Notes: generated by a model not told the origin, from the letters alone. Positions 2,913 to 7,220 are shown, numbered from the stretch's first letter. The stretch is DNA of 9,734 bases from a virus (IMGVR_UViG_2681813004_000016:1-9734), one strand, 5' to 3'. Numbers and translations: made by a program.

Positions 2913-3158
2913 TCACTTCAGCGGGTAGTCATCAAACTCACCATAACGAGCAGCGTTAATGATGATTGGTTGCGAAACAGGAACGTGAGAACCGTCTTCG
3001 TTCTCTACATAAACCTGAATCTGGTTTTCAGGATTTACCGGGTCAGTGTCAATTTTTCCGATATAAATTTTGCCATTGGCTACGGCTTTAAAAGAACGCG
3101 CCATAGTGAAGAGTTGCGAAGGCATGCTTACCACAACATTGGCTGTAATGTCTGTCAT
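2913..3158 (-). pseudogene. P22-type tailspike (gp9) N-terminal head-binding-domain fragment, truncated after about 70 codons
   Basis: [70 protein letters not shown] matches the P22 tailspike N-terminus as recalled ([74 protein letters not shown]...). It then diverges to [11 protein letters not shown] and stops. Lies downstream of ant on the same strand, as in P22. Confidence 0.7.
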
Positions 3159-3258: not shown

Positions 3259-4173
3259 TCAGTAGTTATGTACTGAAGGAGGTAATTCTTTATTCTTAAG
3301 TCTCATCCATGCGGAAAGATTCGTTGGTCCGTCTGGCTCATTGATATCAACATCTCGTGTGTGGTTTATTAAAACGTCTCTCGCCATTCCAATAACATAC
3401 GAGAACTCATGACCGTAGTCGTAGCATCTGCAGGAATAGTTCGATTGAATTTGCTTTAGCGCCGGATACAGTTCGCGGAATAATGCCTGTGAGCGGTTGG
3501 CATAATCCCATAACCATACAAGACTGTCTGTTTCTTTTGCGGAAAGCCCGTTGAGCTTCTTCTCTTGTTTGCCGATTAACTCTCCTTCAAGCGGAACGCG
3601 AGCAGCAAGTGACAGAGCTTCGGTAAACTGCTCCTCGCTGATTTCTTTATATGAACACCCAAAATGAGATTTCAGTGACGACCACATGGTGATCATCGCC
3701 TTCGCCTGTTTTTCTTTTGGCAGAGACTGACCGCGACTCATGACGAGTTGTTTAATGGCTTCCTGCTGCTCTTTGGTTATTTTGCCCGGCAACGCCTTTT
3801 TAGCTTTCGGTGTATTTCCGTAAGACCCCGTTTTACGAATGGATGGCAAAACTTCAGCTGTCACCCATTTGCGGAATTTGTGCGGGACTGAACCTTTATT
3901 GACGGCATCACGGCAGCGCAGAACCAATGTATACATACCTGATTCGCTCACAATGCTTAAATTCTGCTCACCGCCAAGGGTGTAACTTAAAGTTACTCCC
4001 TTCTCATCGTCATCAAGTGCAGTAAGCGCCTTGCGTGAGTTAGTCAGAGTTAAAGCATCACAAACATCTTTTGCTACAAACCACGGCGCACCGCACTTGT
4101 TGATGACGCGGATTTCACTGTCGCCGAATTTGAAGATGGTGAAATCGTTTTGTGCCTTTGCTATACTTTTCAT
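3259..4173 (-). CDS. ant: Phage antirepressor Ant (Bro-N/KilA-N-like N-terminal domain)
   Basis: 304-aa ORF. N-terminus [30 protein letters not shown] is a typical Bro-N-type antirepressor motif. Sits immediately downstream of an Arc-like gene and opposite a divergent Mnt-like gene, the P22 immI arrangement. Confidence 0.85.
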
Positions 4174-4246
4174 GTCAATATTTCCCGATCAGATTTGTTG
4201 ATGTAGAAGCCTCGCCAGTTCCCGCTGTCGGGGCTTCGTTATTTTT
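4174..4246 (+). ncRNA. Predicted sar-like antisense RNA covering the ant RBS and start region
   Basis: Candidate plus-strand promoter inside the ant 5' codons: -35 GTGAAA 4139-4144, 17-nt spacer, -10 TATACT 4162-4167, putting the start at about 4174. Plus-strand hairpin GAAGCC(4206-4211)/GGCTTC(4232-4237) with inner CCCG/CGGG stem, followed by TTATTTTT (4239-4246). Predicted RNA is about 70 nt and antisense to the ant RBS, as described for P22 sar. Confidence 0.4.
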
Positions 4247-4406
4247 AGAGAGCATTCCGCATTTTCTCCCGGTACTTCAACCACCAAGCAAGTCCCTGAA
4301 CCAACACTGAGTTTTCTGACATCCCCTCTTCCTTAGCGATGCGTTTCACCTCCTCCTTAAAACGGTACGGATACCGAAGAGTTGTCTTCACTTCATTCTT
4401 TTCCAT
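4245..4406 (-). CDS. arc: Arc-like ribbon-helix-helix repressor (53 aa)
   Basis: Not in the ORF track (under 60 aa). Minus strand ATG 4404-4406 to TAA 4245-4247 translates MEKNEVKTTLRYPYRFKEEVKRIAKEEGMSENSVLVQGLAWWLKYREKMRNAL. Same size and RHH pattern as P22 Arc (recalled ...PQFNLRWPREVLDLVRKVAEENGRSVNSEIYQRVMESF...). AGGAG RBS 7 nt upstream; directly upstream of ant. Confidence 0.7.
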   Translation of the reverse strand: MEKNEVKTTLRYPYRFKEEVKRIAKEEGMSENSVLVQGLAWWLKYREKMRNAL

Positions 4407-4427
4407 TGATCACTCCTTTTTACGTAA

Positions 4428-4489
4428 TGGCATTATGCCTTGAAAGCAATATGCCATCATTGAATATAAATAGCAATATGCCATCATTG
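4428..4489. promoter_or_regulatory. immI operator/promoter region: 11-bp palindrome plus two perfect 18-bp direct repeats between divergent arc-like and mnt-like genes
   Basis: Palindrome GGCATtATGCC at 4429-4439. Direct repeats AGCAATATGCCATCATTG at 4445-4462 and 4472-4489, 27 bp apart. The 7-mer ATGCCAT (reverse complement ATGGCAT) occurs three times. A candidate plus-strand promoter overlaps them (-35 TTGAAA 4440-4445, -10 TATAAA 4465-4470). Confidence 0.45.
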
Positions 4490-4508
4490 TTTTTTTTGAG
4501 GTGATGTT

Positions 4509-4829
4509 ATGGCTGAAAAGCAGGTTAAAGATTACGAAAAGTTTGTTGTGCGTTTCCCTGACGGGATGAGGGACGCGATTGCGGAGAGAGCCAAACGAAA
4601 CGGGCGCTCTATGAACTCAGAGATTGTGCAGATACTGGAAGATGCCTTGAATGCAGAAAATACTCTTGGGGAAATAGCAGACAAAATCAACAGCGTCTCG
4701 GTTCCGCTAAATGTTGATGCGCTAGTTCAACTTCAAGCCCAGGTTATCGCCATGCAAAAAGAAATACAGGAAAAGTTCAGAGAGCAGAACGAAAAGTTGA
4801 GAGAACTACTAAATAAAAAACCCACCTGA
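4509..4829 (+). CDS. mnt: Mnt-like ribbon-helix-helix repressor with C-terminal coiled coil (106 aa)
   Basis: N-terminus MAEKQVKDYEKFVVRFPDGMRDAIAERAKRNGRSMNSEIVQILEDAL carries the Arc/Mnt signature NGRSMNSE; C-terminal half is heptad-rich. GAGGTGA RBS upstream of ATG 4509. Divergent from arc-ant. Confidence 0.7.
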   Translation: MAEKQVKDYEKFVVRFPDGMRDAIAERAKRNGRSMNSEIVQILEDALNAENTLGEIADKINSVSVPLNVDALVQLQAQVIAMQKEIQEKFREQNEKLRELLNKKPT

Positions 4830-4836
4830 CGGTGGG
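4811..4836 (-). terminator. Rho-independent terminator downstream of tail gene L (overlaps the 3' end of the mnt-like gene)
   Basis: Plus strand aaataaaaaa-CCCACC-tgac-GGTGGG; on the minus strand the stem is followed by UUUUUUAUUU, 10 nt after the L stop codon (4846-4848). The mnt-like stop TGA (4827-4829) lies in the hairpin loop. Confidence 0.6.
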
Positions 4837-4845
4837 CATAATCCA

Positions 4846-5544: not shown

Positions 5545-5873
5545 CAGTTCACCACCTGTTTAAACTCTGCGCTGAACTCAACACGCAACATACTGACCTG
5601 CGACGACCATTTTGCGCAGGTCACCTTTATCTGCCTGTAACCATAAGGCGGCGTCCACAGAAAGGCCTTCCAGCCCCCGTGCTCAGCCAGAAACGACTCC
5701 AGCGCCGTGGCCTCCTCACGGGAGACAGACAGCGTCACGCTGTACGTTTTCAGGTCAGCGTTCAGCCCGGCAGGCGCACGCTGGGAATAGCCATCACCAA
5801 AGCGCACCTCCCTGACGGAAGGGGCCGATGTCACATCCATACCGGGTTTCACTTTCCAGCGGAAGGTTTTCAT
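5544..5873 (-). CDS. M: Lambda-type minor tail protein M
   Basis: 109-aa ORF MKTFRWKVKPGMDV...WTPPYGYRQIKVTCAKWSSQVSMLRVEFSAEFKQVVN matches lambda gpM as recalled; H-M-L order and overlaps as in lambda. Confidence 0.95.
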   Translation of the reverse strand: MKTFRWKVKPGMDVTSAPSVREVRFGDGYSQRAPAGLNADLKTYSVTLSVSREEATALESFLAEHGGWKAFLWTPPYGYRQIKVTCAKWSSQVSMLRVEFSAEFKQVVN

Positions 5874-6247
5874 CGTCCACCTCCGGAGAACAGGCCACCA
5901 TCACGCATCTGTGTCTGAATTTCATCACGGGCACCCTTGCGGGCCATGTCATACACCGCCTTCAGAGCAGCCGGACCTATCTGCCCGTTCGTGCCGTCGT
6001 TGTTAATCACCACATGGTTATTCTGCTCAAACGTCCCGGACGCCTGCGACCGGCTGTCTGCCATGCTGCCCGGTGTACCGACATAACCGCCGGTGGCATA
6101 GCCGCGCATCAGCCGGTAAAGATTCCCCACGCCAATCCGGCTGGTTGCCTCCTTCGTGAAGACAAACTCACCACGGTGAACAATCCCCGCTGGCTCATAT
6201 TTGCCGCCGGTTCCCGTAAATCCTCCGGTTGCAAAATGGAATTTCGC
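5870..6247 (-). pseudogene. H: Tape-measure protein H, C-terminal fragment (about 125 codons), 5'-truncated at the IS903 junction
   Basis: C-terminal translation ...GGFTGTGGKYEPAGIVHRGEFVFTKEATSRIGVGNLYRLMRGYATGGYVGTPG...MRDGGLFSGGGR matches the lambda gpH C-terminus as recalled. Upstream of about 6247 the frame reads IS903-derived sequence, so the first about 35 residues of the 160-aa track ORF are not H. Confidence 0.85.
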
Positions 6248-6779
6248 CGCAGACAACTTCATGTGTGTTGCTGTCAACAGCAAGATGCAACTTTCGCCAG
6301 ATACGACGGCGCTCTTTGCCGTGCTTTCTGACTTTCCATTCGCCTTCACCAAAGACCTTCAGCCCGGTGGAATCAATCACCAGGTGTGCGATTTCACCCC
6401 GGGTGGACGTTTTGAAACTGACATTAACCGACTTTGCCCGCTTACTGACACTGGTGTAATCCGGGCAGCGCAACGGAACGTTCATCAGGGCAAAAATGGA
6501 ATCAATAAAACCCTGCGCAGCCCGCAGGGTCAGCCGGAATACGCGTTTAATCACCAGAACGGTGGTGATGGCGAGATCAGAATAGCGCTGGGGCCTTCCT
6601 CGTGATGAAGGCGTTGCCGACTCATACCAGGCCTGAATCGCCTCATCATCCAGCCAGAAAGTGAGGGAGCCACGGTTGATGAGAGCTTTGTTGTAGGTGG
6701 ACCAGTTGGTGATTCTGAACTTTTGCTTTGCCACGGAATGGTCTGTGTTGTCGGGAGGATGCGTGATCTGATCCTTCAA
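6248..6779 (-). pseudogene. IS903-family transposase, N-terminal about 177 codons, 3'-truncated (track ORF 6195-6779 reads on into H-derived DNA)
   Basis: Transposase similarity runs from the TTG start at 6777-6779 to ...LAVDSNTHEVVC. The last 17 residues of the track ORF (GEIPFCNRRIYGNRRQI) are out-of-frame readthrough of tape-measure DNA. Confidence 0.85.
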
Positions 6780-6811
6780 CTCAGCAAAAGTTCGATTTAT
6801 TCAACAAAGCC
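6248..6811 (-). mobile_element. Truncated IS903-family insertion sequence (IS5 family): left inverted repeat plus 5' part of the transposase gene only
   Basis: Plus-strand 6793-6811 cgatttattcaacaaagcc is the reverse complement of the IS903 terminal inverted repeat GGCTTTGTTGAATAAATCG as recalled. The adjacent ORF encodes ...KQKFRITNWSTYNKALINRGSLTFWLDDEAIQAWYESATPSSRGRPQRYSDLAITTV..., the IS903/IS102 transposase N-terminus. Homology ends at about 6248, where lambda H sequence begins, so only about 564 bp of a roughly 1 kb IS remain. Confidence 0.9.
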
Positions 6812-7220
6812 CCTTAGAGCTAATTTCAGAACCACCAACACCCTCAATATAGTTTGATCTCCATGGTGACTCTTCGTGTGTCATGTTCCTCAGTTTCCAG
6901 GCAGAAAATTGCCCAAAAACATCCCAGACTTCTTCTAATAACTCTAACTGTTCTTCGCTGAATTTTTCAGCATCAAAAGACTCTGGAGAAGGGATAGCGC
7001 CATTACCATATTGTTTATAACGGCGATAAAGCTCAGGGACAACAGGGCCATGCATCCAAGCTTCCATCTTATTCTGAAAAAGAGGCTCGCCAAGCAACGC
7101 CAATGAAAAACCCTGAGCATAGTAAACAAGCTTTTGTAATTTTAAATTAGAGATTGTGTCACCGCTATCCTCGTCACACCGCGACAGGAAGTAGTCGGCG
7201 ACATCAAAACAAGTAAGCAT
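6801..7220 (-). CDS. Panacea / SocA-like (DUF4065) antitoxin-domain protein, 3' end clipped by the IS903 insertion
   Basis: MLTCFDVADYFLSRCDEDSGDTISNLKLQKLVYYAQGFSLALLGEPLFQNKMEAWMHGPVVPELYRRYKQYG... fits the SocA/Panacea pattern (hLKLQKLLYhAQGh...GEPLh...hEAWhHGPVhP.LY). Likely start is ATG 7218-7220 (GGAGG 7 nt upstream); the track used GTG at 7226. The last two codons and the stop (6801-6809) are IS903 sequence, so the native C-terminus is lost. Confidence 0.6.
   Translation of the reverse strand: MLTCFDVADYFLSRCDEDSGDTISNLKLQKLVYYAQGFSLALLGEPLFQNKMEAWMHGPVVPELYRRYKQYGNGAIPSPESFDAEKFSEEQLELLEEVWDVFGQFSAWKLRNMTHEESPWRSNYIEGVGGSEISSKGLC

Follow-up and report, generated by a model that had tools for sequence, protein, structure and literature searches.

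In the immI region of phage P22, the sequence record gives the order mnt, the promoters Pmnt and Pant with the operators Oarc and Omnt, arc, sar, ant and the tailspike gene. Pant reads TTGACA-17-TATATT, and the 17-bp Omnt palindrome begins 6 nt past its -10, with a centre 15 bp beyond the hexamer. Among the 'ant morons' of P22-like phages (Casjens), only the P22 version has been studied (PMC2629481). Our literature search, whose coverage was incomplete, found descriptions of ant morons and of P22 immI, and no study of the operators of the module described here.

A second point of comparison is AmrZ (AlgZ) of Pseudomonas aeruginosa. In the AmrZ-DNA structure (3QOQ), a dimer of dimers reads two 5'-GGC half-sites through Lys18, Val20 and Arg22, and the site has the form GGC-AAAAC-GCC with a 5-bp A/T-rich linker (PMC3325190). 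Changing GGC to GTC costs 9.8-fold in affinity, and a G/C-rich linker costs 7.5-fold (PMC3325190).

The window, a stretch of 9,734 nucleotides of viral DNA (IMGVR_UViG_2681813004_000016:1-9734), carries a module with the order and orientation of immI. Its features, together with two other genes of the same prophage remnant, are listed here.

3259-4173, minus strand: ant, encoding a 304-aa antirepressor (P22_AR_C 92 bits, Bro-N 70 bits); annotated the same way in relatives.
4175-4245, plus strand: predicted sar-like antisense RNA with two hairpins, in the arc-ant gap.
4245-4406, minus strand: Arc-like ribbon-helix-helix (RHH) protein, 53 aa, encoded first in the ant operon (Pfam Arc 17.5 bits; cut-off 20.4).
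4427-4441: site O1, ATGGC-ATTAT-GCCTT, core GGC-ATTAT-GCC at 4429-4439, centre 4434; perfect palindrome.
4443-4457: site O2, AAAGC-AATAT-GCCAT, core 4445-4455, centre 4450; right half perfect, left half (AGC) degenerate.
4445-4462, plus strand: first 18-bp repeat, the O2 core plus 7 bp entering the predicted plus-strand -35 TTGAAT.
4448-4476, minus strand: predicted ant-operon promoter (Pant-like), -35 TTGCTA at 4476-4471, 17-bp spacer, extended -10 TGgCATATT.
4460-4487, plus strand: predicted promoter of the 106-aa gene (Pmnt-like), -35 TTGAAT at 4460-4465, 16-bp spacer, TGc-CATCAT.
4470-4484: site O3, ATAGC-AATAT-GCCAT, core 4472-4482, centre 4477; asymmetric as O2.
4472-4489, plus strand: second 18-bp repeat, the O3 core plus 7 bp holding the predicted plus-strand -10 CATCAT.
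4509-4829, plus strand: Arc/Mnt/AmrZ-family RHH repressor, 106 aa (Pfam Arc 69.9 bits).
6801-7226, minus strand: SocA/Panacea antitoxin-domain protein, 141 aa.
8386-9033, minus strand: NleG-family type III effector, 215 aa.

The likeness to immI extends through the module. The first protein of the ant operon is an Arc-family protein that matches P22 arc in length and position, and a longer Arc-family repressor with a C-terminal helical extension is encoded divergently. Between them lies a control region of roughly 100 bp with two overlapping divergent promoters, predicted here; the arc-ant gap holds a sar-like RNA, here a sub-threshold match, and a putative fragment of a P22-type tailspike gene lies just beyond ant. 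The module is most likely an uncharacterised and fairly ordinary relative of P22 immI, of the ant-moron kind. Gene order, protein families, the sar-like RNA and the predicted promoters all agree with the initial annotation, which saw in this region a putative operator cluster of an Arc/Mnt-type divergent control region.

What differs from P22, judged by sequence, is the apparently AmrZ-like DNA reading of the repressor and the predicted layout of three sites that share one grammar. P22 has two unrelated operators, whereas the three sites here are related to one another and have no sequence similarity to Oarc (ATGATAGAAGCACTCTACTAT) or Omnt (AGGTCCACGGTGGACCT). The initial annotation recommended a comparison with these two operators; the position of O1 matches that of Omnt, its centre lying 14 bp past the predicted ant-promoter -10 compared to 15 bp in P22. 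No separate conserved dyad is found between -35 and -10, the position of Oarc in P22, in the window or in the gaps of the Val class described below. P22 Mnt has 82-83 aa (252-nt CDS) and a His/Asn/Arg head, in contrast to 106 aa and Lys/Val/Arg here, and the start sites are about 37 bp apart in P22 compared to about 53 bp as predicted here. Finally, the P22 module lies between genes 16/sieA and 9, whereas intact relatives of the present one lie between the lambda-type tail genes L and K (E. coli PK8241; Stx phages phi330, 2851 and YYZ-2008).

The ant gene adjoins the 53-aa ORF on the minus strand with a 71-bp gap. In a permissive search of 301 nt, the sar-like RNA matches Rfam RF00262 over its full length with 28.5 bits (E 7e-4), short of the family's gathering score of 43; at gathering thresholds, Rfam has no match anywhere in the window. 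The fold z-score of the RNA is -4.8. The second hairpin (4206-4237) and its U-run form a predicted intrinsic terminator that overlaps the arc-like stop codon, and comparison with P22, phi330 and GF-2 shows that this hairpin is kept, with both arms altered. A -10-like TATACT belonging to the RNA is seen at 4162-4167.

An 81-aa ORF (2913-3158, minus strand) presumably corresponds to the N-terminal head-binding domain of a P22-type tailspike (gp9), which it resembles. In related E. coli loci, the annotation reads 'phage tailspike / head-binding domain'. The fragment is truncated; it comes immediately behind ant, just as in P22, and borders on dacD (1403-2575) and sbmC (811-1284). The opposite flank of the module carries lambda-type tail genes, L and M together with part of H. 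With a truncated tailspike fragment on one side and lambda-type tail genes on the other, the host element is a mosaic, degraded prophage adjoining dacD. We take ORF 5870-6352, read by eye from its translation and gene order, to be a C-terminal fragment of the tail tape-measure gene (H), and ORF 6195-6779 (194 aa), also read by eye, to be a truncated IS5-family transposase that interrupts this putative fragment (region 5870-6779). ORFs 7595-7924 and 7925-8278 have no Pfam match. A terminator-like hairpin with a T-run (4820-4837, minus strand) follows tail gene L and overlaps the stop codon of the 106-aa gene; late transcripts would need to read through it to reach the tail genes beyond the module.

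A renewed search of the sequence found the palindrome, the 18-bp repeats and the 102-bp gap where the initial annotation had placed them. The gap (4407-4508) is bounded by the ATGs of the 53-aa ORF on the minus strand and the 106-aa ORF on the plus strand. Within it, GGCATTATGCC is a perfect 11-bp palindrome at 4429-4439 centred on T4434, and AGCAATATGCCATCATTG occurs at 4445-4462 and 4472-4489, the two copies being identical at 18/18 positions with starts 27 bp apart. With up to 3 mismatches allowed, AGCAATATGCCATCATTG is found at only these two places in the 9.7-kb window, and two matches arose in 0/200 shuffles. The 7-mer ATGCCAT does occur in both orientations, twice on the plus strand (4451-4457, 4478-4484) and once on the minus strand (4427-4433), which places three of the window's four copies within 58 bp. 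Its total of four against 1.9 expected is not significant alone, as 21/200 shuffles reach that number. This "core" consists of the final two linker bases plus the extended half-site GCCAT.

Inside each 18-mer, AGC-AATAT-GCC is a copy of the GGC-ATTAT-GCC palindrome with a degenerate left half. A repeat search points the same way: AATGGCATTATGCC (4426-4439) has AATAGCAATATGCC (4469-4482) as a direct relative and AAAGCAATATGCCAT as an inverted one, and this kinship means that each 18-mer holds a palindrome copy with one degenerate half. The pattern RGC-W5-GCC occurs three times in the 9.7-kb window, always in the gap, and three occurrences arose in 0/20,000 gap shuffles; in 13.7 kb of an intact prophage with the same module, it occurs at the same three places only. 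These searches confirm that the palindrome and the repeats are beyond chance. An RNA-hairpin reading of the palindrome was dropped, because its 5-bp stem would close on a loop of 1 nt, which is not viable.

Directly after O3 is a T8 run (4490-4497). A run of seven or eight T is kept there in the Val and Asn classes of related loci despite diverging flanks, and the Met class has an A/T-rich tract at that place. The run may represent the region first transcribed from the repressor promoter, or else serve the ant promoter as an upstream A-tract.

The 106-aa protein finds AmrZ (3QOQ, E 6e-9) as its best match in the PDB, followed by Mnt (1MNT, E 3e-6), with Arc also behind AmrZ. Homology to AmrZ is confined to the 45-residue RHH core, where the beta-strand core KFVVR-x-P is identical (KFVVRLP in AmrZ, KFVVRFP here) and the reading residues K11, V13 and R15 align with K18, V20 and R22. 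In both proteins, the RHH domain is followed by a C-terminal oligomerisation region, a putative one here: the C-terminal third appears as a long helix with a heptad-like pattern, in the AF2 model and by eye in the sequence, and this helix (about 69-102) probably serves oligomerisation. As the single-sequence AF2 model is weak (pLDDT 64; about 80 in the C-terminal helix), it was used for that helix only. We rejected a toxin-antitoxin reading prompted by a weak FitA-like Pfam match, since no toxin gene follows the 106-aa gene: the next gene is tail gene L, on the opposite strand.

The sites fit the AmrZ grammar. O1 has exactly the format of a GGC, a 5-bp A/T-rich linker and a GCC, whereas O2 and O3 keep one GCC half and have a Lys-contacted G replaced in the other. 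The linkers are A/T-rich throughout (ATTAT in O1, AATAT in O2 and O3, and AGAAT or ATAAT in O2 of clade members). We infer from AmrZ that a dimer of dimers would bind at each site, with Lys11, Val13 and Arg15 reading the half-sites. O1 is the predicted strongest operator, and O2 and O3 should be weaker because one half-site (AGC) is degenerate. As with the amrZ1 repressor site, an autoregulatory site would lie upstream of the repressor's own gene. The differences from AmrZ lie elsewhere. AmrZ acts as a global regulator encoded on the chromosome; its N-terminal arm is extended, and its C-terminal domain is of an unrelated type. Its sites at -93 and -161 are away from the promoter core, whereas the three sites here overlap predicted promoter hexamers, and the target regulated here would be a phage antirepressor.

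The initial annotation considered direct repeats 27 bp apart unusual for RHH operators and offered either a variant recognition mode or two adjacent sites. A variant mode is not needed, since each repeat embeds a pseudo-palindromic site of the GGC-N5-GCC type, whose grammar has been solved for AmrZ (PMC3325190). The alternative of two adjacent sites holds up better, in that the repeats appear to be two separate operators, O2 and O3. These lie on roughly opposite faces of the DNA, 27 bp being about 2.6 helical turns. Multi-site arrays are also known for the RHH fold: MetJ met-boxes, omega heptads, CopG and ParG use adjacent dimer sites, direct or inverted, that overlap promoters, so that direct repeats are not unusual for it. 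Omega and CopG are cited as examples in PMC3325190. The unit in these four systems is a 7-13-bp single-dimer site arranged head to tail, whereas here it is a 15-17-bp operator of two half-sites, repeated at 16 and 27 bp.

If the repeats were instead a centromere-like or iteron array for a ParG-type partition or replication protein, a ParA-type gene might be looked for beside them, and none adjoins. RHH centromere-binding proteins do bind repeat arrays, and some homologues in Pseudomonas phages are annotated 'partition protein ATPase'. The RefSeq entry of P22 mnt bears the same label, which marks it as annotation carry-over. The sites moreover occupy precisely the gap between the two divergent genes and cover the only promoter-like sequences, in a module embedded in the tail genes of integrated prophages, and we regard the partition reading as highly implausible.

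The grammar can be compared across loci. Relatives of the 106-aa protein were gathered from IMG/VR and from genomes sampled at one per species, and the upstream region and beta-strand of each were extracted, which gave 118 distinct upstream regions, 94 of them with a divergent Arc-like gene. A perfect GGC-N5-GCC is present upstream in 32/34 loci with K-V-R, K-I-R or K-T-R heads and in 1/84 others (Fisher p about 2e-25, kinship ignored), the K-T-R loci contributing three of four. GTC-N5-GAC is present upstream in all 28 K-M-R loci and in 0/90 others (p about 1e-27, kinship again ignored). No comparable pattern appears in control stretches taken downstream. The triplet of the half-site follows the reading residue, Val, Ile and Thr going with GGC and Met with GTC. 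The compared loci show both the anatomy of the sites and its covariation with the protein.

The GGC class spans alpha-, beta- and gamma-proteobacteria, including Roseateles, Comamonas, Achromobacter, Variovorax, Aminobacter and Devosia. Many of these have three or four perfect ATGGC-N5-GCCAT sites, and some have no Arc-like gene. Enterobacterial modules of the Val and Met classes have three sites each, whose centres are 16 and 27 bp apart and usually fall near -75, -59 and -32 relative to the repressor ATG. O1 is perfect in almost all of them, and one half is degenerate in every O3 and frequently in O2. The repeats that the initial annotation expected to recur in homologous regions are represented there by sites at the same positions. 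They are not always direct repeats: Met-class O2 and O3 have their degenerate halves on opposite sides, and the 16/27-bp geometry is kept all the same. The direct appearance of O2 and O3 in the window arises because both are asymmetric in the same orientation. By hand count, Asn-class modules (Stx phages, GF-2) likewise have a gap of 27 bp between O2 and O3, but one of 19-20 bp between O1 and O2; in the gaps compared, the sites of this class do not reduce to a simple inverted triplet.

In a comparison of 15 distinct Val-class gaps, there is hardly any variation from O1 to O3, and the flanks diverge. The O2 linker and 3' flank vary, as does the O2-O3 spacer, where Oarc would sit in P22, and the 18/18 identity of the two repeats is confined to the window's sublineage. 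This operator variant is rare, being found in 8/5,426 complete E. coli genomes and in 7 IMG/VR contigs with an identical repressor. A further module class, seen in PhiR12_1 (locus L002, 2660-2769) and at loci L036 and L051, has identical Pro/Gly/Arg heads (PLGIRIP) in both RHH proteins; its divergent gap holds several copies of the repeat family CTACACCGTG / CTACACTGTGTAG.

Compared to Stx phage phi330, identity is about 70% over 4440-4587 and about 100% from 4588 through tail gene L. This sharp recombination joint, at about 4588, falls inside the 106-aa gene. The window and phi330 repressors differ at only three residues, all in the beta-strand (E10D, V13N, V14L). From the jump in identity and these three differences, a segment made up of the operators, the Arc-like gene and roughly the first 27 repressor codons behaves as an exchangeable specificity cassette.

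A promoter scan at a cut of 9/12 consensus matches found none in the gap. A relaxed scan of the gap gave one minus-strand and three plus-strand candidates, and the two promoters retained each have 8/12 matches plus a TG extension. On the minus strand, the TG is at 4456-4455 and the -10 hexamer at 4453-4448, with a start expected near 4441; at the same position, Met-class gaps have the -35 TTGACA and Asn-class gaps TTGCCA. On the plus strand, TTGAAT-16-CATCAT was retained because it is the only candidate positionally conserved in the Met class (TTTACG/TAGCAT) and the Asn class (TTGAAA/CACCAT); its -10 is at 4482-4487, with a start expected near 4494. Two other plus-strand candidates, TTGAAA (4440-4445) with a 16-bp spacer and GAATAT (4462-4467), and TTGATC-19-CATTAT, were set aside for want of positional conservation in other clades. 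The two promoters are predicted to overlap back to back, like Pmnt and Pant of P22.

The predicted hexamers are interlocked with the sites, in the same manner as P22 Pant and Pmnt with Oarc and Omnt. The left half of O3 and two linker bases make up the minus-strand -35 (TTGCTA), the O2 linker and the following G make up the minus-strand -10 (CATATT), and the right half of O3 overlaps the plus-strand -10. As a result, the 27-bp spacing of O2 and O3 yields exactly the 17-bp spacer of the predicted ant promoter.

Such interlocking raises the question of whether the repeats are only duplicated promoter elements, for instance tandem promoters from a local duplication, with repressor binding incidental or absent. 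Each repeat does contain a minus-strand -10-like TGgCATATT and a -35-like TTGCT, and identity at 18/18 positions in one sublineage only would allow recent conversion. However, from class to class the site cores vary with the reading residue at fixed positions, which is unexpected of promoter elements alone, and the best-conserved palindrome is O1, which lies downstream of the -10 and has no promoter role. We consider this explanation very improbable.

Our preferred reading, to which we give a probability of roughly 75%, is that O1-O3 form a three-site operator array of the 106-aa RHH repressor over two overlapping divergent promoters. Each site would follow the grammar ATGGC-N5-GCCAT, two GGC half-sites around a 5-bp A/T-rich linker. 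O1 would cover the start region of the predicted arc-like/ant operon promoter, O2 its -10, and O3 its -35 together with the -10 of the repressor's own promoter. At low repressor levels, O1 would be filled first and block ant transcription at the start site, and its occupancy would free the overlapping repressor promoter from promoter competition. At higher levels, O2 and O3 would fill and close the core of the ant promoter; filling of O3 would also close the repressor's own -10, making its synthesis self-limited. By analogy with Mnt and AmrZ, the C-terminal helix should hold two dimers together. The graded occupancy of O1 and then O2/O3 is a prediction.

The 53-aa Arc-like protein, made from the ant operon, would probably feed back through the same sites. 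Its similarity to Arc variants in the PDB is weak (E 0.03-0.4), with an alignment that spans the beta-strand and both helices and places K7, T9 and R11 opposite Arc Q9, N11 and R13. Within single modules, the Arc-like and Mnt-like heads are often the same or alike: K-N-R is paired with K-N-R in 17 loci and K-V-R with K-T-R in 15; K-M-R is paired with x-Q-R in about 18 and with K-M-R in 4. An Arc-like protein 92-98% identical to that of the window occurs with a K-T-R partner, where O1 is the palindrome AAGGCAATTTGCCTT, and a 94%-identical one also occurs with Asn-class partners such as that of phage GF-2, in gaps without GGC-N5-GCC. The same Arc-like protein is thus found with Val-, Thr- and Asn-class partners. 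Similar heads within the module (K7/T9/R11, Thr being close in shape to Val) and the K-T-R partner with a GGC palindrome suggest that the Arc-like and Mnt-like proteins of one module may share operators. A separate operator for the 53-aa protein was sought but not found: gaps that share the Arc-like type and differ in partner class, or the reverse, contain no Arc-specific motif, and the O2-O3 spacer is variable.

The same evidence bears on a P22-like division of labour, in which O1 would serve the 106-aa protein, and O2 and O3 the 53-aa protein, shutting both promoters after expression of the ant operon. P22 offers the precedent of two distinct operators: Oarc falls within the core of Pant, and Omnt sits at its start site. 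O2 and O3 also differ from O1 in a consistent and conserved way (AGC left half, GCCAT right half), and the K/T/R head of the Arc-like protein resembles K/V/R, K-T-R Mnt-like proteins going with GGC sites in 3/4 cases. However, the Met class has one strong and two weaker sites whatever the Arc-like head (S-Q-R or K-M-R), and loci without an Arc-like gene retain two to four sites of the class predicted from the Mnt-like head. The Arc-like protein of GF-2 is about 94% identical to that of the window, yet its O2 and O3 are of the Asn-class type, and the compared gaps hold no motif specific to an Arc type. A division of labour appears unlikely, though less so than the other alternatives.

Since the prophage around it is degraded, the module matters little locally. 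In the wider family, many E. coli prophages, including Shiga-toxin phages, carry modules of this kind within their tail regions. We tentatively suggest, at somewhat less than even odds, that ant modules form a heteroimmune family in which one beta-strand residue and one half-site base largely set specificity on a fixed three-site scaffold, with shared operators and cassette exchange. If this is true, Val, Ile or Thr co-evolves with GGC and Met with GTC while the 16/27-bp scaffold stays constant, and the short Arc-like and long Mnt-like proteins use the same operators, unlike those of P22. The unit of exchange would comprise the operators together with the Arc-like gene and about 27 codons from the start of the repressor gene, with which the joint at about 4588 fits. 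The comparative pattern also offers a clean, testable case of an RHH recognition rule, in which one residue tracks one base. In Gifsy prophages, antirepressors have reportedly been shown to induce prophages, including others in the same cell. The sequences that silence ant, and the question of which repressor classes would cross-react and which would not, bear on coordinated induction in strains that carry several prophages.
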